Below are positions 3,084 through 62,182 of a stretch of DNA of 64,000 bases, one piece after another. The stretch spans positions 130,234 through 194,233 of the forward strand of contig JAQUPX010000004.1 in the NCBI GenBank assembly GCA_028716385.1, given 5' to 3'. Position numbers and translations under genes: made by a program. The notes below the pieces were generated by a model. It was not told where the DNA came from, ran no database searches, and worked only from the letters and a program-made list of their open reading frames with translations. This stretch comes from a bacterium (GTDB lineage: Bacteria; Hydrothermota; UBA3073; JACQXS01; JAQTXJ01). Position 1 is the first letter of the stretch; each line of letters begins with the position of its first letter.

Positions 3084-3115
3084 GCCTGTCTGCCGGTAGG
3101 CAGGGATTGGCACGG
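3084..3115. repeat. GC-rich palindromic repeat (gcctgtctgccggtaggcaggg + attggcacgg)
   Basis: This is an imperfect copy of the CCTGCCTGCCGGCAGGCAGG palindrome that recurs at 4774, 14375, 16111 and 35002. Confidence 0.6.
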
Positions 3116-3367
3116 GTAGAATAAAAAAGAAGTTTTAACAGGGATTTGAAGAGACTAGTACGAGATTGAAAATAAAAAGAAAGCGAAAATTATATTGTAA
3201 AAACGATAACAAATGATATATACGAAAAATATGGAAAAGGATTAACTAATTGTTTATTATAATCCGTGTATATTCCGCCTGAGGCGGACTAAAATTTAGT
3301 ATAGTGTTTTCTTGTAATATTTTTTATTCATAAGTATAGTAGCAAAAAAGGTAATCAATTAACTGAT

Positions 3368-4600: not shown

Positions 4601-4920
4601 ATTACAGAATGAAACCACAAAAACGAATACAAAAAGAATTATTGCCACGGATAACAGACACAGATTTCCACGGATTAACAAAAAAAAACAAAAAAAGTAT
4701 AACCAAAAGAGTTTATGAGATTACAGATAGAAAAGAAAAACCAGAAAGAATTATTGCCACGGATAACAGACACGCCTGCCTGCCGGCAAGGCAGGGATTT
4801 CCACGGATTAACAAAAAAAAACAAAAAGAGTATAACCAAAAGAGTTTATGAGATTACAGATAGAAAAGAAAAACCAGAAAGAATTATTGCCACGGATAAC
4901 AGACACAGATTTCCACGGAT
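4601..4920 (+). repeat. tandem repeat, about 2.7 units of 112 bp, purine-rich, each unit containing GCCACGGATAACAGACAC…ATTTCCACGGATT
   Basis: Motif starts fall at 4644, 4756 and 4889 (periods 112 and 133). Unit 2 carries a 23-nt GC palindrome insertion at 4774-4796 that units 1 and 3 lack. Confidence 0.85.
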
Positions 4921-4937
4921 AAAATAAAATATTAAAA

Positions 4938-5300
4938 ATGCTATTATACGAAGAAATTACCGAAAAGATAATAAAAGCTTTTTATGAAGTCCATAATGAA
5001 CTAGGGAATGGGTTTTTAGAAAATGTTTATGAAAACGCTTTAATGATAGTATTAAAACAGTATAATCTAAAAGTAGAACAACAAAAAGATATAAATGTGT
5101 ATTTTAGGGATGTTTTGGTAGGTAAATATCGTTCGGATATAATAGTGGAAGATAAGATAATCCTTGAAATTAAATCCGTTTCAAGAATTACAAAAGAATT
5201 CGAAGCACAGTTAATAAATTACTTAAAAGCTACGAATATGAAAATCGGGTTAATATTAAACTTTGGTGATAAAGCAGAGTTTAAAAGGCTGGTATTCTAA
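4938..5300 (+). CDS. GxxExxY-family protein (PD-(D/E)XK nuclease superfamily)
   Basis: The 120-aa ORF contains GFLENVYENAL, which is the GxxExxY signature. It is flanked by the repeat copies described in the findings. Confidence 0.75.
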   Translation: MLLYEEITEKIIKAFYEVHNELGNGFLENVYENALMIVLKQYNLKVEQQKDINVYFRDVLVGKYRSDIIVEDKIILEIKSVSRITKEFEAQLINYLKATNMKIGLILNFGDKAEFKRLVF

Positions 5301-8286: not shown

Positions 8287-8348
8287 TCGGGAATAGGTAA
8301 CAGTTAATAGTTTGCAGGTTAAAAAACAACAGACAATAGAAAAAAATT

Positions 8349-8388
8349 TTGCCACGGATAACAGACACGGATTAGCACGGATTTCGTA
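8349..8388 (+). repeat. solitary copy of the GCCACGGATAACAGACACGGATTAGCACGGATTTCG repeat
   Basis: It matches the tandem units at 4601-4920 and the inverted copy at 5301-5331. Confidence 0.75.
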
Positions 8389-8413
8389 AAAGATTCAGGG
8401 TTATAAGAACAAA

Positions 8414-8899
8414 ATGAGGATTATAGGTATAGATACGGGATTAAAGACCACAGGTTACGCAATCATAGAAACCAATAAAATTCTGAAGTGTGGGATATGC
8501 GAAACTACGGAAAAAATGTCCTTAGCTGAGCGACTGAAAGTTCTTTATGATAAGATGAAAGCGGTAATGCAGGAGTATTCCCCTGAAATAGCCGTATACG
8601 AAACTGTTTTCTACAAGCAGAATTTTGGAACTTTTAGTAAACTTTCGCATGCGAGGGGAGTTCTTTTGCTGGCGGCTGCGGATATGGGAATAAAAATAAA
8701 AGAATATTCGCCTGCGGAAATAAAAATGGCAGTAACCGGTAACGGCAGGGCGTCAAAAGACCAGATACATAGTATGGTAGAAAGATTAACGGGTGTAAAA
8801 ATATTGCCTTCACTGGATGTCGGGGATGCGCTCGCTTGCGCTTTATGTTATAGAATGCGAGAAGAGAATTCAAGAATATTTTTTTCAAGGATAAAATAA
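8414..8899 (+). CDS. ruvC: crossover junction endodeoxyribonuclease RuvC
   Basis: It begins MRIIGIDTGLKTTGYAIIE… and shows the classic yebC-ruvC-ruvA synteny. Confidence 0.9.
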   Translation: MRIIGIDTGLKTTGYAIIETNKILKCGICETTEKMSLAERLKVLYDKMKAVMQEYSPEIAVYETVFYKQNFGTFSKLSHARGVLLLAAADMGIKIKEYSPAEIKMAVTGNGRASKDQIHSMVERLTGVKILPSLDVGDALACALCYRMREENSRIFFSRIK

Positions 8900-14374: not shown

Positions 14375-14396
14375 GCCTGCCTGACGGGAGGTAGGG
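14375..14396. repeat. degenerate copy of GC palindrome (gcctgcctgacgggaggtaggg)
   Basis: It has the same core as 4774-4796 and lies immediately 3' of the LptD-like gene. Confidence 0.5.
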
Positions 14397-16090: not shown

Positions 16091-16146
16091 TAGCTACGGA
16101 TAACAGACACGCCTGCCTGCCGGCAAGGCAGGGATTTACACGGATT
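16091..16146 (+). repeat. repeat element: TAGCTACGGATAACAGACAC + GC palindrome (16111-16133) + GATTTACACGGATT
   Basis: It is near-identical to unit 2 of the tandem repeat at 4756-4810. Confidence 0.8.
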
Positions 16147-16312
16147 GAGACAGAGAATATAAAGCAGTTAAAAGTGAGAAACGAATAGTATATCAGATTA
16201 CAGATGAAATGGATTCCCGCTTTCGCGGGAATGACAAACGAGGGAAAGAAAATCATACTAAAGGCGGAGGAGGTTTAATAAGGTTGAAAAATCAGGTGGG
16301 TAGGGGAGGGGT

Positions 16313-22467: not shown

Positions 22468-24138
22468 TTATTTAAGGAGAAGAAGCAGTATGGAACTTAC
22501 TACAAGAGTTGCGATGGTAATTGGTGCGCAGACTTTTAAGTAATTAAAAAATGTAATTTTATATCCTCGTTTTTCCGCTAATCCTGCGGTTACGATATTT
22601 GCGGAAGCTCCGACTAATGTTCCATTTCCGCCCAAACAAGCGCCAAGCGCAAGCGCCCACCATAAAGTATTTCCTGCGCCGGGAATTGTGTGTGTCAGAT
22701 ATCCAACTACCGGTAGCATTGTTGCGGTAAATGGGATATTATCCACGATACTTGAAGCAATTGCGGACACCCAGATAATCAATAAGATAGCAGTAGTTAT
22801 ATTTCCACCGGACATCTTGCTTACCGAATTTGCAATCATTTGTATTAGACCTGTGCTTTCTGCGGCTCCGACCACAATAAACAACATCATAAAGAAGACA
22901 AGTGTAGGCCATTCGACTTCTTTCTCAAGGATATCGACGATATTTACCTTGCTTATCAAAAGCAAAAGGGAAGCTCCGACTAAAGCCGCAATGCTAACTT
23001 CCATATGTAAAAATCCGTGAGTTATAAACATAAGAATCACAATTCCTAAGACGATTAAGCTTTTCTTGAGTAGCTGACTATCCGTTATCTTGTATTCTTC
23101 TTTTAGTTTTTTCAAAAGTTCGTCAACGTTATCTATTTTTGCTTTTGCGTATTCTTTACCAAAATAAAACTTCATCATAAATATTAATACAAACATACAG
23201 ACTATTACTATTGGAGCAAGGTGGACTACAAACTGATTAAATGTAAGTCCCGCATAAGAGCCTATCATAATGTTTGGCGGGTCGCCGATTATTGTTGCTG
23301 TCCCACCGATGTTTGAAGCAAGAATCTCAGGGAGGAGGAAGCTAAAAGGATTAATACCAAGAACCACTGCAATTTCAATGGTAACCGGGGCGATAAGAAG
23401 CATAGTAGTTACATTGTCTAAAAAAGCGGATGCGATTGCCGTTATGACAGTAAGAAGAACTACTAAAATCCAGATATTTCCTTTTGCAAGCCGGTAAGAT
23501 TTATAGGCAAGCCACTGGAAGACACCCGTGATTTTCATTATGCCGACAATAATCATCATCCCGAAGAGGAGAAAGACGACATTAAGGTCAATAAATTTCA
23601 TCGCATCTTCAAAGGAAATTATGAAGTATCCCTTATTGAATGAGCCAAAAGTGTATGTGATTAAAAGTATAAGAGCTGCTCCGAGAGAGGCAGCAAGGGT
23701 TCTGTGGCATAAATCAAACCCGATAAGTATGTAAACGAGTAGTAATATAATAACGGATATATAGAAAGCAGGTCCTAAAATATGGTCAATTGTAATATTG
23801 GAGAATAAAGAATAAGTTCCTTCTTTATAGGCTAGTTGAGACTTTTCTATTTCTAATTTATTATTACGATAAGTAGGTTTAGAAGTTTTAATTTCAATAT
23901 TATTAAGGGATTGTAAACTATCAATTTGAATAATAAAACTCCCATCAGAAGAGGTTTTTTCGGTTTTATAATATTTGCCGTCAATTGAAACATCCAATTC
24001 TGCATCGGAAATGAGTTTATTGTAGGAGTCAATTACTTTGCCTGAGATGTTTAGTTTGTTTAAGCTGTCTTGTCCCGTTACTGCAAAGGAATTGTAAGCA
24101 AATAAGAAGAGGCTAAGGAATAATATCTTTTTCAGCAT
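22468..24138 (-). CDS. fusion protein: signal peptide + carboxypeptidase-regulatory-like beta-sandwich domain + ArsB/NhaD (ion transporter superfamily) permease, copy 1
   Basis: The N-terminus (ISGKVIDSYNKLISDAELDVSIDGKYYKTEKTSSDGSF) is CarboxypepD_reg-like. The remainder is a 10-12-TM ArsB/NhaD-type permease (…GNTLWWALALGACLGGNGTLVGASANIV…). Confidence 0.7.
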   Translation of the reverse strand: MLKKILFLSLFLFAYNSFAVTGQDSLNKLNISGKVIDSYNKLISDAELDVSIDGKYYKTEKTSSDGSFIIQIDSLQSLNNIEIKTSKPTYRNNKLEIEKSQLAYKEGTYSLFSNITIDHILGPAFYISVIILLLVYILIGFDLCHRTLAASLGAALILLITYTFGSFNKGYFIISFEDAMKFIDLNVVFLLFGMMIIVGIMKITGVFQWLAYKSYRLAKGNIWILVVLLTVITAIASAFLDNVTTMLLIAPVTIEIAVVLGINPFSFLLPEILASNIGGTATIIGDPPNIMIGSYAGLTFNQFVVHLAPIVIVCMFVLIFMMKFYFGKEYAKAKIDNVDELLKKLKEEYKITDSQLLKKSLIVLGIVILMFITHGFLHMEVSIAALVGASLLLLISKVNIVDILEKEVEWPTLVFFMMLFIVVGAAESTGLIQMIANSVSKMSGGNITTAILLIIWVSAIASSIVDNIPFTATMLPVVGYLTHTIPGAGNTLWWALALGACLGGNGTLVGASANIVTAGLAEKRGYKITFFNYLKVCAPITIATLVVSSILLLLLK

Positions 24139-24554
24139 AATTTTTTATTTGTTTGGACGTATATAGAGAAGTTAATTTATAATACGAAAAAGTCAAGCGC
24201 TTATTGAAAAGCGGGGGATTTTAATATTGTAAGGAGATAATTTTTGGACGCACCCTCCAAACAGATCGGCGGGCAGGGATAAACGCAGATTAACAGGATA
24301 AAACAAAATAGAAGATTATAGATAAAAAAAATACCAAATAAAAAGGTAAGTGAAGAACCCTATCTAAAGACGGGGCTTCCAAAAATAACAAAAACAGTGG
24401 ATTCCCGCTTTCGCGGGAATGACAAATGGGAGACGGATAGGCAAAAAAGCTTTCACCCCTATCTAAAGGCGGGGTATTCAGCCAAAAGACACTTAATAAG
24501 TATGGATTTTCGCAGAAAAAGAGAAACAGAAAATTGCCAGGGTAAAGAGAATGT

Positions 24555-26225
24555 TTATTTAAGGAGGAGCAGTAATATGGAGCTTACTACAAGAGTAGCG
24601 AGGGTAATCGGGGCACAAACTTTCAAGTAATTAAAGAATGTAATTTTGTAACCTCGTTTTTCTGCTAATCCGGCGGTTACGATATTTGCCGAAGCACCGA
24701 CTAATGTTCCATTCCCGCCCAAACAAGCGCCAAGTGAAAGCGCCCACCATAAAGTGTTTCCTGCACCGGGAATGGTATGTGTGAGATATGCCACTATTGG
24801 CAGCATTGTTGCGGTAAATGGAATATTATCTATTATACTTGAAGCAATACCTGAGACCCATATAATTAGCAAGATAGCGATAGTCAGGTTTCCACCCGAT
24901 AATTTGCTTACGGAATTGGCAATCATTTGTATTAGTCCTGTGCTTTCTGCGGCTCCGACCACAATAAACAACATCATAAAGAATATAAGCGTAGGCCATT
25001 CGACTTCTTTTTCCAGCACTTCAACAATATTTACTTTGCTTATCATAAGAAGTAGTGATGCTCCGACTAAAGCCGCAATGCTCACTTCCATATGCAAGAA
25101 CCCGTGAGTTATAAACATAAGGATCACAATTCCTAAAACGATTAAACTTTTCTTGAGTAACTGACTATCGGTTATTTTGTATTCTTCTTTTAGCTTTTTC
25201 AGAAGCGCATCAACGTTTTCTATTTTTGCTTTTGCATACTCTTTGCCAAAATAAAACTTTATCAGAACCAACAATACGACCATACAAACTATTATTATTG
25301 GTGTAAGGTGTACGACAAACTGGTTAAAAGTAAGTCCCGCATAAGAGCCTATCATAATGTTTGGTGGGTCGCCGATGAGAGTTGCAGTCCCGCCCATATT
25401 GGAAGCCATAATCTCGGGAAGAAGGAAACTGAAGGGATTGATTCCAAGTATCATTGTAATTTCAAGAGTAACCGGGGCAATGAGAAGCATAGTCGTTACA
25501 TTATCCAAAAAAGCCGATACTATTGCCGTAATAACGCTAAGAAGAATTACCAAAGTTAGGATGTTCCCTTTTGCAAGCTGGTAAGACTTGTAGGCAAGCC
25601 ACTGGAATACACCCGTGATTTTCATTATGCCGACAATAATCATCATCCCGAAAAGAAGGAAAATGACGTTAAGGTCAATAGCTTTCATAGCATCTTCAAA
25701 GGAAATAACGAAGTATCCTTGATTGAATGAGCCAAAAGTGTATGTTACGAGAAGTACAAGAGCTGCTCCAAGAGAGGCAGCAAGCGTTCTGTGACATAAA
25801 TCAAACCCGATGAGTATATAAACGAGTAGTAATATAATAACGGATATATAGAAAGCAGGTCCTAAAATATGGTCAATTGTGATATCTGAGAAAAAAGAAT
25901 AAGTTCCTTCTTTATAAGCTAGTTGAGACTTTTCTATTTCTAATTTATTATTACGATAAGTAGGTTTAGAAGTTTTAATTTCAATATTATTAAGGGATTG
26001 TAAACTATCAATTTGAATAATAAAACTCCCATCAGAAGAGGTTTTTTCGGTTTTATAATATTTGCCGTCAATTGAAACATCCAATTCTGCATCGGAGATG
26101 AGTTTATTGTAGGAGTCAATTACTTTGCCTGAAATGTTTAGTTTATTTAAGCTGTCTTGTCCCGTTACTGCAAAGGAATTGTAAGCAAATAAGAAGAGGC
26201 TAAGGAAAAATATCTTTTTTAACAT
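24555..26225 (-). CDS. fusion protein: carboxypeptidase-regulatory-like domain + ArsB/NhaD permease, copy 2 (tandem paralogue)
   Basis: It is 556 aa, the same length as copy 1, and collinear with it, with roughly 90% aa identity by eye. Confidence 0.7.
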   Translation of the reverse strand: MLKKIFFLSLFLFAYNSFAVTGQDSLNKLNISGKVIDSYNKLISDAELDVSIDGKYYKTEKTSSDGSFIIQIDSLQSLNNIEIKTSKPTYRNNKLEIEKSQLAYKEGTYSFFSDITIDHILGPAFYISVIILLLVYILIGFDLCHRTLAASLGAALVLLVTYTFGSFNQGYFVISFEDAMKAIDLNVIFLLFGMMIIVGIMKITGVFQWLAYKSYQLAKGNILTLVILLSVITAIVSAFLDNVTTMLLIAPVTLEITMILGINPFSFLLPEIMASNMGGTATLIGDPPNIMIGSYAGLTFNQFVVHLTPIIIVCMVVLLVLIKFYFGKEYAKAKIENVDALLKKLKEEYKITDSQLLKKSLIVLGIVILMFITHGFLHMEVSIAALVGASLLLMISKVNIVEVLEKEVEWPTLIFFMMLFIVVGAAESTGLIQMIANSVSKLSGGNLTIAILLIIWVSGIASSIIDNIPFTATMLPIVAYLTHTIPGAGNTLWWALSLGACLGGNGTLVGASANIVTAGLAEKRGYKITFFNYLKVCAPITLATLVVSSILLLLLK

Positions 26226-34787: not shown

Positions 34788-34979
34788 TCGACCTCCTTTT
34801 TTAAATAGTGAGTTTATAAATATATATGTGTGGCGAAATAGGTGTCTTGTCAATGCCTTTTATTTGTTTTTTCGTGGAATAAACATTAAGAATTATTGAT
34901 AAATAATTAAGTTGACAGTTAAGAATATTTTTTTAATATGTAAAATTAAATAAGGATAAAGGGAAAAATAAAAAATGAT

Positions 34980-35033
34980 GCCCCTGTAGCTCAGATGGAT
35001 ACCTGCCTGCCGGCAGGCAGGGAGCACCGGTTT
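34980..35033 (+). pseudogene. partial 5' copy of tRNA-Arg (acceptor, D-arm, 5' anticodon stem) interrupted by a 20-nt perfect palindrome
   Basis: gcccctgtagctcagatggata + [cctgcctgccggcaggcagg] + gagcaccggttt is identical to tRNA positions 1-33 apart from the insertion at 35002-35021. It diverges after the anticodon stem. Confidence 0.75.
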
Positions 35034-35046
35034 AAGGCGGTAATAG

Positions 35047-35310
35047 TTGACAAATATGTATGTTTATGTAATAACAAACGATAAGAAAAGAATATATGTT
35101 GGAATGTCAAAAGACCCTAAAAATCGTTTAATAGAACATAATGCAGGGAAAACAAAGTCAACAAAAGGATTTAGACCATGGAAGTTGATGTATATTCAAG
35201 AATGTAAAGATCGGGTGGAAGGAAGAAAACTTGAGAAAAACTTAAAATCCGGATCAAAAAAGGAAGAATTAAAAAAGATGTTAAAATGCCCCTGTAGCTC
35301 AGATGGATAG
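35047..35310 (+). CDS. small GIY-YIG nuclease-domain protein (YhbQ/UPF0213-like)
   Basis: The 87-aa ORF carries YVYVITNDKKRIYVGMSKDPKNRLIEHNAG, the GIY-x10-YVG…R…E…N core. Its 3' end overlaps the first 23 nt of the tRNA. Confidence 0.72.
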   Translation: MTNMYVYVITNDKKRIYVGMSKDPKNRLIEHNAGKTKSTKGFRPWKLMYIQECKDRVEGRKLEKNLKSGSKKEELKKMLKCPCSSDG

Positions 35311-35361
35311 AGCACCGGTTTCCTAAATCGGTTGTCGCGCGTTCGACTCGCGCCAGGGGTA
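35288..35361 (+). tRNA. tRNA-Arg (anticodon CCU)
   Basis: Manual fold gives a 7-bp acceptor gcccctg/caggggt, D-arm gctc-agatggata-gagc, anticodon stem ccggt/atcgg with loop ttCCTaa, V-loop ttgtc and T-arm gcgcg-ttcgact-cgcgc. CCA is not encoded. Confidence 0.85.
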
Positions 35362-35412
35362 GTATTAAAAATTAATCCGCCTGAGGCGGAGCAAAAATAA
35401 AAAGGGGTTAAA

Positions 35413-41975: not shown

Positions 41976-42220
41976 CACGATTTCCACGAGAATAAACTAC
42001 AACACAAAACAGAAAGATTTTTTGCACACAGAATTGCACAGATTAATACAGATTGACACAGAATTCCTAAGGGCAGGGCTAAAGATCCCCTCCAAAAAGA
42101 AGGCGGACAGGCAAGGGCTTCGTATCGTATAATGTTTTTGACGAAACAAACTCCAACTAAAAAAGCATTGACAAAAGACTTATTTTGTTGCATAAAGAAA
42201 TGAATAGTATGTAAATATTA

Positions 42221-43819
42221 ATGTTACATAAGGGGATTATGAAAAGGATATCGTTATTTTGTATAGGAGTAACCGTATTCTTTTTCGGAATGCCTGTTAT
42301 GGCGGATACAACTTATGTCATTGGAACTATTAGCAATGATACGGTATGGAATACAGCAGGTAGTCCATATATTGTAACGGGTAATTTATTGATTGACAGT
42401 TCTGCGACTTTAGACGTTGAACCCGGGGTTGCAATCTTTATTAATAGTCTTAAAAACATAACTGTAAAAGGGGTTTTAAGTGCTGTGGGGACTTCAACGG
42501 ATTCAATTATTATTACCAAATATCAAGGTAGTTGGGGGAGACTCCGGATTAAGCCATCTGCAAGATGCAGCTTAAAATATTGTAGGATTGAATATGCAGA
42601 AAGTTCTGCCATTTATAATGAAAGCGATGATTCTATTTATGTGGGATATAGTAATATAGAAAACAACTTTACTTGGTGTATTATTGGAGGGGGTATTTAT
42701 AATTCAGGGACAATTACTATAACAAATAATAGAATATATAAAAATTATGCAGGGCTAGGGGCAGCAGGCATTTGGAACAACAACTATGCGATTGCTATCA
42801 TAAAAAATAATATTATATCCGACAATACTGTTGGAATGGATGGTTCGGAGACAGGAATTATTAATTTGGGGACAGCCATTATAACTGATAATATTATATG
42901 CAATAATGGGAGCACTTTTGAAACCGGTGGAGGTATTGGTAACTGGTCTGGAGGAACAGCTACGATAATGAATAATACGATATATAATAATCCTGTTGGT
43001 GTCTGGAATGATGGTTTTGCCGAAATAATAAACAATAATATATACGATAATTGTGGAAATGGCGCAGGAGGCATCCGTAATCATGGACCGGCTATTATAA
43101 CGGGAAATAATATTTCCAATAACTGGGGCGGGGGACTTTGTAATACCTATGATTCCGTTATAATAACTAATAATGCCATATCTTACAATGAATGTTCAAT
43201 GTGGGCTTATGGTAATAATATTGATAATAGCGGTTCAAATGTGATTATTAAATACAACACAATAATTGATACAGGTTTTGGTTATTATGCTAATGATACA
43301 TTGCCTTCTATTTATAATTCCGGAGCAGGTGTCGTTATATGCAGTACGAATATTTATGCCAAATATTGTTCTGTTTATAATGATAGTACGGATAGTTTAA
43401 TTGCCCGTTACAATTACTGGGGAACAACGGATACCGGTATTATTGATACGAGAATATGGGATTTTTATGATAATTCTTCAAAAGGGATAGTTATATATAA
43501 GCCTTTTCTTGATGATTCGTTTAAGGTGGGAGTTAAAGAACAGTCAATAGTTAACAGGCAACAGTTAACAGTAACTACAAAACCGAATCCGTTTATTCAG
43601 TCAACAGTCATAAGTTATCAGTTACCTGTCGGTGGAAAAGTATCTTTAGTATTATACGATATTGCAGGCAGTTGCGTGAAGATGCTCGTGAATGAGGAAA
43701 AGCAGGTGGGGAGTTATAGTGTTTGCGTGGATGCGAAGGAGTTAAAAGCGGGGATTTATTTCATAAAACTGAAAACCGGAAATTATCAAGAGACAAAGAA
43801 AGTGGTATTGATGAGGTGA
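42221..43819 (+). CDS. right-handed parallel beta-helix repeat protein with T9SS C-terminal sorting domain
   Basis: It has a signal peptide, about 12 beta-helix-like repeats (NN.I..N…G.G.GIWN…) and a C-terminal NPFIQSTVISYQLPVGGKVSLVLYDIAGSCV…KVVLMR. Confidence 0.7.
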   Translation: MLHKGIMKRISLFCIGVTVFFFGMPVMADTTYVIGTISNDTVWNTAGSPYIVTGNLLIDSSATLDVEPGVAIFINSLKNITVKGVLSAVGTSTDSIIITKYQGSWGRLRIKPSARCSLKYCRIEYAESSAIYNESDDSIYVGYSNIENNFTWCIIGGGIYNSGTITITNNRIYKNYAGLGAAGIWNNNYAIAIIKNNIISDNTVGMDGSETGIINLGTAIITDNIICNNGSTFETGGGIGNWSGGTATIMNNTIYNNPVGVWNDGFAEIINNNIYDNCGNGAGGIRNHGPAIITGNNISNNWGGGLCNTYDSVIITNNAISYNECSMWAYGNNIDNSGSNVIIKYNTIIDTGFGYYANDTLPSIYNSGAGVVICSTNIYAKYCSVYNDSTDSLIARYNYWGTTDTGIIDTRIWDFYDNSSKGIVIYKPFLDDSFKVGVKEQSIVNRQQLTVTTKPNPFIQSTVISYQLPVGGKVSLVLYDIAGSCVKMLVNEEKQVGSYSVCVDAKELKAGIYFIKLKTGNYQETKKVVLMR

Positions 43820-43858
43820 CGAGAGAATGAGTCGAATATAGGCATATAGGAGGATCAA

Positions 43859-45550
43859 GTGTTATGTTTTGGGATTGTTATATTGTATATTAATCTTGCG
43901 ATACCAAAGTCTAATATAGTTGTTTCGGCTCAAAATGCCGTGTATTGTTTAGACAGCGATGGCGTTCTTAAATGGAGTTTCCCGCATACTCTTGTTTATA
44001 ATGAAATATCAGCCCCGGCGATTGGCAATTTAGATAATTTTGGTAATCCTAAGATTGCTGTAGGAGCAGACAAGTTGTACTATTTTAATTGTGATGGCAA
44101 TGTGAAATGGTCATATAGCGGTTCATTCTGGCTTTGTTCTCCTGTGATGGCAAATGTGGATACTACGGGAAATGCGGAAATAATTACAGCGGATTCATCT
44201 ACTCTTTATTGTTTCAACAGTGATGGAAGTATAAAATGGTCATACCCGATATCCGGGAATTATTCATCAGAATGGATTGGACCTGCAGTAGCTACCGCAA
44301 ATGTAGATACGAACGGCGTGCCGTCAGTTTTTGCAGTTACACCGACAAATGTATATTGTATGAATGGTAATGGAACATTAAAGTGGTCGTATCCTATGCC
44401 GGGGGATTATTTAGTAGGTATAGGAGTGTCTGATATTGATTTAGACGGGAATGTGGATATTATAGTAAATACTAATGTATATTCCAGCGATGTTTATTAT
44501 TTGTATTGTCTAAAAACGGATGGAACGCTTAAATGGAGTTATAGCGGGAATGGGTTTATATCGCAACCTGCCATAGCTGACATAAATAAAGATAGCCAAC
44601 AGGAAATAGTTGTGCATAATTCAGAGGTTACACCCAAAACAGTTATAGCCTTTCAAGAAAATACTTCCCATAATGGTTTAAATGTAGTATGGACAGCTGT
44701 GGTAGAAGACATTACTTCAATTTCTGCTCCTCCACCCGTAATATGTGATATTGATGGAGATGGCGACAAGGATGTTTTGTGGGTTGGCTGTATAAATTCT
44801 CCACCTACCGGTACATTGTATATATTAAACGGTATGGATGGTAAACACCCTGACAATTCGGGGGCAACTTGTTATACGGATAATAATTTTGCAAGCAGAA
44901 CACTTTGTGAGCATGGATGTTCGGTAGCAGATATTGACGGGGACGGATATGTAGAAATAGTTGGGATTAGTCCTAATTCAGGAGATACGTATGGGGTAGC
45001 AGCTATAGAATGTGATGCCTCCTGGGCAACGGGCAGAAATATATTTTCTTCTCAGCTTTATCATATCAGCGAGGTAAATGATAATGTAAGTATACCCAAT
45101 GTTGAGACTGCTAACTGGAAAAGCCATAATACATGGCTTACGCAATTGACTACCGGGGGAACCGGTTTTGGAAATCCTACTTTGAAATGGAGTTATTCAA
45201 ATTCTACATTTGGGTGGATTGTAGCTTCTATAAGCATAGCTCCTCTTTCTGATATATCTGGTGTGGAAGAAAATTCGGATTTGGGATTTTTGAATGTGGG
45301 ACTGAAAATAAAAAAGAATCCATTTGTGCAATCAACAATGATTAGTTATCAGTTACCTGTTGGGGGAAAAGTATCTTTAAATTTATATGATGTTTCAGGT
45401 AGTTGCGTGAAGACGCTCGTGAATGAGGAAAAGCAGGTGGGGAGTTATAGTGTTTGCGTGGATGCGAAGGAGTTAAGAGCGGGAATATATTTTGTGAAGT
45501 TAAGAACAGGAAATTATCAAGAGACAAAGAAAGTGGTATTGATGAGGTAA
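43859..45550 (+). CDS. PQQ/FG-GAP-like beta-propeller repeat protein with T9SS C-terminal sorting domain
   Basis: The repeated unit is YC(L/F/M)(D/N)SDG.LKWSYP, seen at least six times. The CTD is about 90% identical to that of the 42221 gene. Confidence 0.65.
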   Translation: MLCFGIVILYINLAIPKSNIVVSAQNAVYCLDSDGVLKWSFPHTLVYNEISAPAIGNLDNFGNPKIAVGADKLYYFNCDGNVKWSYSGSFWLCSPVMANVDTTGNAEIITADSSTLYCFNSDGSIKWSYPISGNYSSEWIGPAVATANVDTNGVPSVFAVTPTNVYCMNGNGTLKWSYPMPGDYLVGIGVSDIDLDGNVDIIVNTNVYSSDVYYLYCLKTDGTLKWSYSGNGFISQPAIADINKDSQQEIVVHNSEVTPKTVIAFQENTSHNGLNVVWTAVVEDITSISAPPPVICDIDGDGDKDVLWVGCINSPPTGTLYILNGMDGKHPDNSGATCYTDNNFASRTLCEHGCSVADIDGDGYVEIVGISPNSGDTYGVAAIECDASWATGRNIFSSQLYHISEVNDNVSIPNVETANWKSHNTWLTQLTTGGTGFGNPTLKWSYSNSTFGWIVASISIAPLSDISGVEENSDLGFLNVGLKIKKNPFVQSTMISYQLPVGGKVSLNLYDVSGSCVKTLVNEEKQVGSYSVCVDAKELRAGIYFVKLRTGNYQETKKVVLMR

Positions 45551-45600
45551 AACATTAAGTTTTTTTATATTTTAATTTTTGATTTGAAAAAGGGGGGATC

Positions 45601-47109
45601 ATGAAAAAGGTAATTTGTTTGTTAAGTTTTTTGTTTTTGTTTGTTGCTGAAACTAGGGCGCAGGTGTTTCAAATTTCCGTTGCCGACAGCAGTCAGATTT
45701 ATCCTGATGTAGCATTTGACGGGACTAATTTCTGGACGGTATGGGCAGATAATAGAAACGGGACTTCCCGTATTTATGGGGCAAGAATAGCGACAGATGG
45801 AACGGTATTAGATACAAACGGAATACTGCTTGCAAGTTTGCCGGACACCGATTATACAATGCCTTCGGTGGCATTTGGAGACAGTGTTTTTTGTGTGGCT
45901 TTTCATATCTCCGGAGGATATGATACAACACCAGTATATTGTTCATTTAAAGATGTTGGTGCTGTAAGGTTTCAAAGGGGAGGAAATATAATAGATACTA
46001 TCCCTAATTTTATATATGGGTGGTCAGGAATGGGTTATTATGTACGATATTCCGATATGCCAATTGTTATGTTTGGCAAGAAACATTTCTTTTTCTCATT
46101 GTCAATGAACACCGGTTCCTCTATGGAAGGATTTTGGGATTCTGAAATTCAAAGTTTAGGTGATACCTGTATGGCAGGTGCGATAGGGTTGCCGGGATTT
46201 CATTCATGGGCACCTACCGGTGTATGGAATGGTGAAAAGTTTTTTATAGTATGGACTCAAAACCCATGTGATACGTTTGTATTTGGGATAGGAGGGGCTT
46301 TTATTGACGATAGTTTAATCGGGCAATCCGTAGATTCATCTCAATTCAAAGTTAGAAGTGATAAAGAAGTTCCTATGGATATGCTTTTGGGTGGTTGTTC
46401 GGAAAGAAGTAAAGAGCTTGCTTTTGGGAGTAACCATTATCTATTAGTTTCAGAAACGGAGCTGCATTATAAAAATAAAATCTGGTATGACATTCTTTCT
46501 GACTCAGGGAAACCAATAAATTCTTTGCCTACTATAATTGATACGGGTAATTCTGTTGACCAGCGATTGCCTACCTGTGCATACAATAATGGAAAATTTA
46601 TTGCAGTGTGGCAAAATTCAATTAGTGGAGACACTAACTTGTACGGGATTATAATAGATACACTTGGTGGAATTATTGATTCCGGTCATATAGACAAGAG
46701 TCCATTTTGCCAAAAACAACCATCTCTTGCAACCGGTGCCGGGAAAACCTTACTTGTTTGGTCGGATAACAGGAACGGAAATTTTGACATATACGGAATG
46801 TTTATAGGAGACACTTTGGGAGTTAAAGAAAATTCGGATTTGGGATTTTTGAATGTGGGACTGAAAATAAAAAAGAATCCATTTGTGCAATCAACAATGA
46901 TTAGTTATCAGTTACCTGTTGGGGGAAAAGTATCTTTAGCAGTATATGATGTTTCGGGCAGGTGTGTGAAGACGCTGGTAAACGGAATCAAGGAAGCAGG
47001 GCAGTATAAAGCAGAAATAAATGCAGAGAACTTAAAAGCGGGGATTTATTTCGTAAGTGTAAAAACCGGAGATTATAAGGAAACGAAGAAGCTGATTATT
47101 TTGAAGTGA
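45601..47109 (+). CDS. secreted repeat (beta-propeller-like) protein with T9SS C-terminal sorting domain
   Basis: It has a signal peptide, repeats of the …P.VA..G…LVVW.DNRNG..DIYG..I type, and a CTD whose first ~110 nt are identical to 45269-45379. Confidence 0.6.
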   Translation: MKKVICLLSFLFLFVAETRAQVFQISVADSSQIYPDVAFDGTNFWTVWADNRNGTSRIYGARIATDGTVLDTNGILLASLPDTDYTMPSVAFGDSVFCVAFHISGGYDTTPVYCSFKDVGAVRFQRGGNIIDTIPNFIYGWSGMGYYVRYSDMPIVMFGKKHFFFSLSMNTGSSMEGFWDSEIQSLGDTCMAGAIGLPGFHSWAPTGVWNGEKFFIVWTQNPCDTFVFGIGGAFIDDSLIGQSVDSSQFKVRSDKEVPMDMLLGGCSERSKELAFGSNHYLLVSETELHYKNKIWYDILSDSGKPINSLPTIIDTGNSVDQRLPTCAYNNGKFIAVWQNSISGDTNLYGIIIDTLGGIIDSGHIDKSPFCQKQPSLATGAGKTLLVWSDNRNGNFDIYGMFIGDTLGVKENSDLGFLNVGLKIKKNPFVQSTMISYQLPVGGKVSLAVYDVSGRCVKTLVNGIKEAGQYKAEINAENLKAGIYFVSVKTGDYKETKKLIILK

Positions 47110-52152: not shown

Positions 52153-52233
52153 ACAAACTGGCAAGCAGGATCTCAGAGAACGTCCCGCCAAAGCGGGATA
52201 AACTCCGAACAGAAAAAAGGACAAAGAATTTTT

Positions 52234-62019: not shown

Positions 62020-62182
62020 AGAATTCTTTGGACGCAGATAAACGCAGATTAATTGGATTTAAAAGAAAACAGAACTTCTAGAGTTAAAACGGAAAAGAGA
62101 AACAGACATAATTGGGATCAACAGACTGGGACTAACGCAGATAATAGAAGATTAGACCTACAAATATAATAAATATTAATTT

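Follow-up and report, generated by a model that had tools for sequence, protein, structure and literature searches.

The window examined here is a 64-kb stretch of contig JAQUPX010000004.1 (assembly GCA_028716385.1, from a bacterium of the Hydrothermota). It contains a 20-nt palindrome, CCTGCCTGCCGGCAGGCAGG, which we call PAL. The exact copy of PAL lies inside a disabled duplicate of the 5′ part of a tRNA-Arg(CCT) gene. The open reading frame (ORF) of a very small GIY-YIG nuclease starts 34 bases after it and runs into the intact tRNA-Arg gene (Table 1).

PAL has perfect two-fold symmetry and, by our own count, a GC content of 80%, in a window with a GC content of 35.9%. A search of the window allowing up to three mismatches returns three sites, namely, the exact copy and the two decayed copies listed in Table 1, and a hairpin scan adds two copies of an imperfect form of 21 nt, which has an additional A (CCTGCCTGCCGGCAAGGCAGG). 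PAL is a real and non-random feature of the window; 100 shuffled windows gave 0.00 matches, and the chance expectation is 0. A first-pass annotation of the same DNA, made from the letters alone, had reported five copies of a perfect palindrome of ~90% GC. All five are where it placed them, but only the one at 35002 to 35021 is perfect, and its figure for the GC content was too high. The annotation had also placed degenerate relatives at 24262, 42095, and 61010. The first of these fits an arm of PAL with one mismatch, and the other two have no match to it within two mismatches.

Table 1. Window positions of PAL copies and of the associated tRNA, nuclease, and repeat features
Feature	Position	Strand	Remarks
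Exact PAL, CCTGCCTGCCGGCAGGCAGG	35002..35021		0 mismatches, 0 expected; hairpin fold; inside the duplicated 5′ part of tRNA-Arg, at the D-loop/D-stem junction
21-nt PAL variant (extra A)	4775..4795	+	Unit 2 of the 133-nt tandem array; units 1 and 3 empty
21-nt PAL variant	16112..16132	+	Dispersed copy of the CACGGATAACAGACAC...GATTTNCACGGATT repeat; family D4, 84% identity over 76 nt
Decayed PAL, 2 mismatches (both C-to-T, + strand)	3085..3104		22 nt past a methyltransferase gene
Decayed PAL, 3 mismatches, 7-bp stem retained	14376..14395		11 nt past an LptD-like gene, upstream of uvrC
Possible solo right arm of PAL (CGGCGGGCAGGG, 1 mismatch)	24267..24278	+	Weak evidence
Mini GIY-YIG nuclease gene, 85 codons from ATG	35056..35310	+	PF01541, E = 1.9e-16; stop codon in the D-loop of the intact tRNA-Arg
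133-nt tandem array, 2.4 units	4633..4920	+	Gives a filled/empty comparison
Disabled duplicate, tRNA-Arg(CCT) nt 1-34	34980..35033	+	34980-35001 plus 35022-35033, with PAL between; family D13
Intact tRNA-Arg(CCT), target and retained copy	35287..35362	+	ARAGORN; Rfam tRNA, 61.3 bits

Filled and empty sites of the palindrome

Within the window, PAL can be compared with its own empty site in two places, and both comparisons made in the first-pass annotation hold. The first 34 nt of tRNA-Arg(CCT) are duplicated with 100% identity (34980 to 35033 versus 35287 to 35320); the disabled copy differs solely by 20 bases cleanly inserted between GGATA and GAGC. In the tandem array, unit 2 holds 21 extra bases relative to units 1 and 3 and to a fourth copy of the repeat at 8340 to 8418; alignment with the CACGGATT version at 8363 places the 21-mer cleanly between G^G. 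The variant at 16112 occupies the same position in the same repeat family (D4) as the one at 4775. Because of this shared position the two need not be independent events, and they may descend from a single insertion.

A weak resemblance links the 35 nt preceding the disabled tRNA piece (34945 to 34979) to the last part of the GIY-YIG ORF (35253 to 35286; family D13, 75% identity over 57 nt with the tRNA part included). It may mean that an older unit of a tandem array once stood there, or it may be due to chance in A-rich sequence.

Outside the window, we made an exact scan for the 20- or 21-mer in 596 Gb of DNA, with one genome for each of 185,579 species. Exact PAL is present in at least 120 genome stretches, the flanks of which are unrelated to one another; by our own rough estimate, at most a few occurrences of an exact 20-mer would be expected in this amount of DNA. 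Among the matches listed, and with hosts as named in the database records, the identical 20-mer is found in more than 10 phyla. These hosts comprise many lineages of Patescibacteria, along with Omnitrophota, Bacteroidota, Planctomycetota, Verrucomicrobia, Elusimicrobia, Thermodesulfovibrionales, Nitrospirota, delta-proteobacterial and Bdellovibrio-like bins, and others. At least seven are cultured Bacteroidota (Winogradskyella, Flagellimonas, Longitalea, Flavivirga, Aquiflexum, Agriterribacter, and Aestuariivivens). A further 42 stretches with PAL are on viral contigs, and some of the high-GC and viral matches are coding coincidences in homologous phage proteins. Variants in other genomes include 19-, 21-, and 22-mers as well as point-mutated forms. 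The lineage of the window is WOR-3/Stahlbacteria-like, with an AsnRS 67% identical to that of named relatives; in ~40 kb from WOR-3-type relatives, no PAL was found even when four mismatches were allowed.

Two orthologous empty sites are provided by a Shapirobacteria-like locus (L117) and a syntenic one (L249), the DNA of which is 87 to 91% identical over 8 kb; the former contains two PALs and the latter none. The GatB protein of L117 reads IETDD-LPAGRQV-VY, while a 94%-identical ortholog and ten more read IETDD-GQT-VY. At the DNA level, PAL plus TG stands in place of CGGTCAAACT (10 nt), which lengthens the gene by 12 nt. L117 also has a duplication of the final ~55 nt of gatB (reverse strand, ~5100 to 5240; L249, 6490 to 6570). 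A working copy ends the gene, and 7 nt past its end lies the old copy, split by PAL (TCTGCCAA^PAL^TCCAAAACTGGC...). This is the same arrangement of duplication and plugging that is found at tRNA genes (see below), here without a nuclease ORF. The first-pass annotation had suggested a tiny mobile palindromic element. That suggestion is supported by the unrelated flanks, by the two orthologous empty sites, and by the comparisons of disabled and intact tRNA genes described below; nor do all copies belong to one homologous repeat family, a possibility that the annotation had raised against it.

Most solo copies of PAL lie between genes, and 79 of 103 sites in loci with <50% GC are outside long open frames. 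The remaining sites include in-frame copies within conserved genes, in which PAL encodes xLPAGRQx (20-mer) or LPAGKAG (21-mer) and adds ~4 to 7 codons. The affected genes encode FtsK-like proteins, GatB, dTDP-glucose dehydratase (RfbB-like), TrmD, ribosomal protein S6, and others, and the PAL-encoded residues map to gapped loop regions of solved homologs. PAL is also found within the loops of other hairpins beside the 3′ strand of the stem (L023, L076, and L104), at the exact center of another palindrome (L091), nested in PAL itself (L022, L025, and L049), and between short tandem repeats.

The sequence context of these sites is only loosely defined. The base at position −1 is A at 46% of low-GC sites, and A...T flanks are present at 25 of 91 sites; beyond the bias at −1, the flanks look random. 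Flanks that pair over at least 6 bp are found at 14.7% of PAL sites versus 6.3% of control positions, and strict hairpin-loop targeting was rejected because this enrichment is only ~2.3-fold. Duplication of a nearby flank is seen at ~10% of solo PALs versus 1% of controls, a property of a subset that was rejected as a general feature of solo copies. A GIY-YIG gene is adjacent at only ~4 of 105 low-GC genomic sites and at 1 of the 5 copies in the window.

Several other roles for PAL were considered and rejected. As a general boundary of small-ORF cassettes it fails because GIY-YIG or GxxExxY ORFs lie near only a minority of genomic PAL sites. The clustering of small ORFs near PAL, which might have indicated an autonomous element, is dominated by high-GC phage coding coincidences, and nothing recurrent was found among ORFs between paired PALs. 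Phages are not the main vehicle, since only 2 viral contigs carry the nuclease, though PAL is present in 42 viral stretches. A role as an intrinsic terminator was also rejected: terminator-like sites number 9 versus 8.0 expected, a level consistent with chance, the sense strand has no T run after PAL, and PAL was flagged on the antisense strand only.

In the window, a gene for a GxxExxY-type PD-(D/E)XK nuclease (4938 to 5300; PF13366, TIGR04256) directly follows the tandem array with the 21-mer in its second unit. Across genomic PAL sites, genes of this nuclease family showed no general link to PAL.

Duplicated tRNA genes and the GIY-YIG nuclease

Proteins of the GIY-YIG family represented in the window are 77 to 85 aa long and consist of the catalytic domain only, with no second domain. 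Residues Y4, Y14, G16, R24, H28, and E60 are invariant in the family alignment and include the GIY-YIG catalytic Tyr, Tyr, Arg, His, and Glu. A profile built from six members matches two solved UPF0213 proteins, 1zg2 and 1ywl, followed by the structure-specific endonuclease SLX1. With the window protein, no NCBIfam model attains its cutoff, and an identical protein at NCBI is named “GIY-YIG nuclease family protein.” The nuclease gene of the window contains no arm of PAL. Among 50 ORFs of the 64-kb window there is no gene for a transposase, RAYT (Y1 transposase), integrase, or HUH protein.

The arrangement in the window recurs in unrelated loci that were selected by PAL: a 5′ part of a tRNA gene containing PAL is followed by a middle segment and then by the intact tRNA gene. 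The middle segment is a GIY-YIG ORF or what is left of one (a frameshifted version or a remnant of 22 nt), or else only a short spacer. The layout is seen, for instance, in L044 (WWE3, Lys), L119 (Gly), L095 (Ser), L035 (Val), and L158 (viral); of these, L119 (frameshift) and L095 (remnant) hold decayed copies of the nuclease gene.

To remove the bias of selection by PAL, 80 metagenomic loci were picked solely because they encode a relative (43 to 57% identity) of the window GIY-YIG protein. A tRNA gene abuts the nuclease gene in 67 of the 80 loci, directly downstream in 57 and upstream only in 10. Exact PAL is present within 130 nt in 41 loci, PAL with up to three mismatches in 54, and any GC-rich palindromic insert in a duplicated tRNA part in ~63 (our own count). 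The tRNAs with this layout are those for Arg, Lys, Phe, Asn, Leu, Met, Val, Glu, Gly, and Ser.

More than 40 alignments of disabled and intact tRNA copies give a clean 20-nt insertion, with no tRNA base duplicated or lost. Most insertions are at raw tRNA positions 20 to 23 (...GG(A/T)TA^GAGC), at the junction of the D-loop and D-stem and usually at 21^22, after A21. The others are at positions 9, 12 to 15, 32, 39, 44, 55, and 64 to 67, all of them at or next to helix junctions. Every duplicated tRNA piece that reaches the usual insertion site carries a palindromic insert. To the left of PAL, disabled and intact copies differ at only 5 of 446 nt. Divergence to the right of PAL, a test for chimeric pseudo-tRNAs, is confounded in that the duplication ends inside the scored stretch.

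Where the tRNA gene is upstream of the ORF, PAL is found in a duplicated 3′ piece downstream (L194, L198, and L232). In tandem arrays of units composed of a pseudo-tRNA, PAL, and the ORF (L164, L170, and L194), PAL is present in every unit. PAL lies anywhere from 10 to 78 nt from the ORF but at a fixed position in the tRNA; therefore, PAL is positioned by the tRNA and not by the ORF. PAL is inserted DNA and a recurrent, integral part of tRNA-abutting GIY-YIG units, with its position set by tRNA structure. The target region is duplicated, one copy being left intact and the other plugged by PAL.

Loci without exact PAL often have variants of it at the same spot in the tRNA, including a 19-mer lacking one central base (L182 and L197) and CCTGCAGG, which keeps the outer ends (L237 and L238). 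Pseudo-tRNAs also contain nested forms of PAL (L166, L171, L172, and L174), other GC hairpins with CCT...AGG ends (L185, L228, and L168), and a different palindrome (L200 and L201). The proteins encoded beside exact PAL have a median pairwise identity of 53% and a minimum of 33%, while PAL is identical at 20 of 20 positions in all 41 loci. Such constancy amid protein divergence argues for constraint or continual renewal rather than for a neutral scar.

The same system is found in a cultured bacterium, Pedobacter glucosidilyticus, in which a disabled tRNA-Arg(CCT) holds 3 versus 4 tandem copies of the PAL variant CCTGCCTGCCGTTAGGTAGG in two strains (L250, JMTN01000032.1, and L251, CP043329.1; ~1260 to 1900). 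There, the disabled tRNA precedes an intact tRNA, which is followed by the GIY-YIG gene and then by another disabled tRNA, this one carrying a nested insert. With respect to the presence or absence of the nuclease at the tRNA-Arg of the window, contigs of the closest relatives end exactly at the tRNA or have lost synteny. Contigs L001 (1 to 135; identical AsnRS) and L244 (1 to 60; 75%-identical AsnRS), both from other samples, start at or inside tRNA-Arg, which points to the duplicated tRNA piece as a place where short-read assembly fails.

Some loci have less usual arrangements. In L019 (3990 to 4225), a tRNA 5′ half with PAL in its D-arm and an apparent 3′ half have an intact tRNA-Met gene between them. 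L227 (1389 to 1482) and L215 (1731 to 1825) have full-length tRNA copies with a PAL-like insert (at position 39 or 9) beside an intact copy. One of these copies is labeled by ARAGORN as a tRNA of unknown type, and such copies may be misannotated as intron-containing tRNAs.

Proposed origin and movement of the palindrome

We propose, with a probability of roughly 55%, that PAL is a repeatedly inserted hairpin that serves as the cis component, and also as a solo satellite, of a tRNA-invading selfish element with a UPF0213/SLX1-type GIY-YIG protein of ~80 aa. We infer that the nuclease moves PAL. A small SLX1-like nuclease consisting of a catalytic domain would probably recognize the structure of DNA rather than its sequence, and this would explain why so many tRNAs are targeted and why the insertions are at junctions. 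The nuclease would cut DNA stem-loops or cruciforms, including tRNA-gene hairpins and PAL itself, at the junction of stem and loop, the tRNA-gene hairpins perhaps being cut when heavy transcription or replication opens the duplex. Repair of the break would duplicate the target region and leave PAL plugging the old copy, thereby keeping one working tRNA and rendering the old copy uncuttable. PAL folds into a strong hairpin, and the same activity may at times move it alone to hairpin-like or A-flanked sites. Selection would then remove insertions that disable needed genes, so that spacer copies, disabled tRNA pieces, and rare in-frame copies would remain. With tRNA genes as universal landing pads, the unit of nuclease plus PAL could cross phylum borders, and carriage on this unit would explain the identity of the 20-mer across phyla. 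A bolder version, which we offer tentatively and with the odds somewhat against it, is that PAL and the ~80-aa SLX1-like protein form an unrecognized kind of mobile system in which the hairpin is excised and reinserted as a unit or is used as a plug for breaks.

A number of observations weigh against the proposal of a nuclease-moved hairpin. The action of the nuclease on tRNA genes or on PAL, and the movement of PAL by it, are deduced from sequence comparison. Most solo PALs have no GIY-YIG gene nearby (see the counts above), 26 of the 80 GIY-YIG loci have no PAL-like 20-mer, and other hairpin sequences occupy the same tRNA sites (L200, L216, and L228). Duplication of a nearby flank accompanies only about a tenth of solo PALs. 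The only in-gene insertion that was sized, the one in gatB of L117, is not clean, in that 10 nt were replaced by PAL plus TG, presumably because only frame-preserving variants survive. Furthermore, an 80-aa catalytic domain has no obvious way to read a specific 20 bp, and the intact tRNA beside the nuclease gene should stay cuttable, which a simple homing model fails to explain. Finally, the link between PAL and the nuclease could reflect the use of disabled tRNA pieces as neutral, hairpin-rich landing pads by an element that is moved in some other way.

The last point, stated in full, is the rival that survives best. It holds that PAL is a mini-hairpin moved by another enzyme and that the tRNA fragments made by the GIY-YIG elements are merely its best neutral landing pads, i.e., hairpins with a TA^G junction, so that the association is indirect. 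This would fit the large excess of PAL over nuclease genes and its mostly distant location from them, the several unrelated hairpins in the same pseudo-tRNAs (L185, L200, L216, and L228), and the general bias of PAL toward A^ and hairpin loops at non-tRNA sites. However, a palindromic insert is found in every tRNA duplicate of sufficient length, including young ones with flanks identical to those of the intact tRNA, and in every unit of the tandem arrays, and 50 ORFs of the window include no transposase, RAYT, or integrase. We consider an indirect association unlikely.

Less likely again is that PAL is a repair product made anew at each nuclease break, for example, by addition of the 10-nt CCTGCCTGCC to both 3′ ends followed by joining. 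No template for such a product and no enzyme adding a fixed 10-mer was seen; to our knowledge, there is no activity that adds a fixed 10-mer to the ends of a break. The absence of a PAL arm from the window nuclease gene and the scarcity of truncated or arm-only forms also count against it. The perfect two-fold symmetry and the lack of target duplication do fit such a product, as do the short outer-end forms (CCTGCAGG in L237 and L238), the 19-mer without one central base (L182 and L197), the composition of the 21-mer as a 10-nt arm plus an 11-nt arm, and the loss of target bases in the sized in-gene event, as after end resection. Nested and tandem PALs are explained equally well by insertion of the whole unit.

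PAL could also be mainly a functional site under selection, acting as an RNA hairpin by which transcripts are stabilized or terminated, or as a site for protein binding; recombination, not transposition, would then have spread it. In keeping with this, four of the five copies in the window are found between genes a short way past a stop codon, both changes in the 3085 copy preserve G-U pairing on the sense strand, and PAL stays constant while neighboring proteins diverge. The terminator test described above argues otherwise, however, as do the presence of PAL in frame within essential genes and in disabled tRNA pieces, the varying distance to the downstream ORF at a fixed tRNA position, and the complete lack of PAL in the DNA compared from related genomes, and we regard this explanation as improbable. 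A chance match, an assembly or sequencing artifact, or a segment of one longer repeat family is very improbable, since the sharing of a longer repeat (family D4) by the two window 21-mers and the coding coincidences in homologous phage proteins among some high-GC and viral matches are set against zero copies expected in the window, at least 120 stretches versus at most a few expected in 596 Gb, unrelated flanks, decayed copies, a constant reading frame in genes, and at least seven cultured isolates.

In its behavior, PAL is most similar to the GC clusters of fungal mitochondria, such as yeast GC42 and the M, G, and V types, the PstI palindromes of Neurospora, and the double-hairpin elements. 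Mitochondrial GC clusters multiply, pass between species, and fuse with one another, endonucleases encoded in introns have been suggested to help them, and the GC42 cluster carries a putative AG target-site duplication (PMC4478555). Like them, PAL is a GC-rich palindrome in an AT-rich genome, with presence/absence polymorphism, nested or merged copies, and occasional entry into genes. Unlike them, it is on bacterial chromosomes, is 20 nt long rather than ~30 to 50 nt, is identical across phyla, lacks a target-site duplication, and is associated with a particular partner gene (a statistically tight link) and with a particular target, tRNA 21^22.

For the nuclease gene, the nearest parallel is SegB of T4, a free-standing GIY-YIG homing endonuclease. 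SegB and I-TevI carry a separate DNA-binding domain, whereas the protein described here is a catalytic domain alone of ~80 aa, is nearer to UPF0213 and SLX1, and targets at least 10 tRNA species. SegB is encoded in a tRNA cluster, and its site includes the conserved T-psi-C motif (PMC2330249). The features shared with free-standing GIY-YIG homing genes are the location of the nuclease gene beside tRNA genes and the catalytic motif, and the decaying and remnant copies (L119 and L095) would suit the life cycle of a homing endonuclease. We know of no homing endonuclease, SegB included, for which either partial target duplication or a fixed palindrome has been described.

The first-pass annotation had compared PAL with REP, HIP1, and Correia-type elements, a comparison that is apt only loosely, since the defining features of those families are absent. 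REPs are imperfect palindromes with a GTAG head that are extragenic, specific to a species or clade, and paired with a single-copy RAYT gene. PAL shares with REPs and REPINs its nature as a short palindromic repeat (20 to 40 nt in the REP class) present in many copies, mostly between genes. It differs in being a perfect palindrome that starts with CCTG and has no GTAG head, that enters genes, and that occurs in more than 10 phyla, and the search of the window ORFs for RAYT was negative, as noted above. The terminal inverted repeats around an internal segment of ~50 to 500 bp that characterize miniature inverted-repeat transposable elements, Correia/NEMIS included, have no counterpart in a PAL of 20 to 21 nt in total, and their target-site duplication is likewise missing, with tRNA numbering contiguous on either side of the insert in more than 40 comparisons. 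HIP1, an 8-nt motif (GCGATCGC) overrepresented in the genes and spacers of cyanobacteria, is of another sequence and length, and filled and empty PAL sites differ by a 20-nt insertion rather than by point changes.

Two further families resemble PAL in part. The Rickettsia palindromic elements, which are ~100 to 150 bp long and restricted to Rickettsia, were reportedly found by Ogata et al. in 2000 to be inserted in frame in conserved protein genes and also in noncoding DNA. PAL is similarly in frame in conserved protein genes, as shown by the 94%-identical GatB ortholog without the insert, but is 20 nt long and present in many phyla (Patescibacteria, Bacteroidota, Omnitrophota, and others). 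Elements of the IS200/IS605 family have two different subterminal hairpins and a 4- to 5-nt target and need a Y1 HUH transposase. Like them, PAL forms a hairpin and inserts according to base context without target-site duplication, and a preference for hairpin or single-stranded targets is plausible. Unlike them, it consists of one symmetric hairpin, its site preference is limited to a bias for A^ at a single base, and the window has no HUH gene.

No description of PAL was found in the literature searched (for its sequence, the LPAGRQ peptide, UPF0213/YhbQ, and GIY-YIG with tRNA), a search that had most subscription journals outside its coverage, so that a prior description is possible. Mobile GC-rich palindromes are a known kind of element; the partner gene and the target appear to be newly recognized.

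The spread of mitochondrial GC clusters has been debated for decades without an identified enzyme. If the link between PAL and the nuclease holds, it would provide a testable pair of enzyme and substrate for the spread of very short GC-rich palindromes in AT-rich genomes. It would also establish that selfish elements aimed at tRNA genes form a widespread class in Patescibacteria, Bacteroidota, Omnitrophota, and other phyla and would account for the repeated assembly breaks and “partial tRNA” calls in metagenome-assembled genomes. PAL is a source of small in-frame insertions in essential proteins, and a minimal nuclease acting at a defined 20-bp hairpin could serve as a tool. Cultured, tractable hosts exist in Pedobacter glucosidilyticus and several Flavobacteriaceae. 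Were the bolder version, a new kind of mobile system, to be true, PAL would be the smallest autonomous-in-cis mobile DNA known in cellular genomes, one able to cross phyla on tRNA genes and to lengthen essential proteins by LPAGRQ.

Other repeats and gene duplications in the window

Purine-rich short repeats of the CACGGAT or CACAGATT type fill gene-to-gene spacers of the window (4633 to 4930, 8340 to 8418, 16093 to 16168, 24278 to 24308, 42020 to 42065, and 62037 to 62067), and repeats of the same kind flank PAL in other phyla (L028, L030, and L090). A second GC hairpin, TCCGCCTGAGGCGGA, is present twice (3274 to 3288 and 35376 to 35390; 0.07 expected), in one case 13 nt past tRNA-Arg. Elsewhere, its relatives TCCGCCAAAGGCGGACAGG and TCCGCCTACCGGCGGACAGG interrupt disabled tRNA copies that adjoin GIY-YIG genes (L228 and L185), and TCCGCCTACCGGCGGACAGG differs from PAL at only 6 of 20 positions.

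A third hairpin is represented by two copies of ATTCCCGCTTTCGCGGGAAT with shared flanks (family D16) and one of TCCCGCCAAAGCGGGA, the sites being 16213 to 16232, 24401 to 24420, and 52183 to 52198. The former sequence fits what we take to be the ATTCCC-N8-GGGAAT pattern of the Neisseria dRS3 repeats. Further hairpins besides PAL have the forms TCCGCC-N3-GGCGGA and ATTCCCGC-N4-GCGGGAAT.

Longer duplications are found within two groups of tandem genes. Two paralogs encoding CitMHS-type transporters (22468 to 26225) share a 300-nt stretch of 86% identity at one gene end (family D2), and three genes for secreted proteins (42221 to 47109) have common type-9 sorting tails (family D1).

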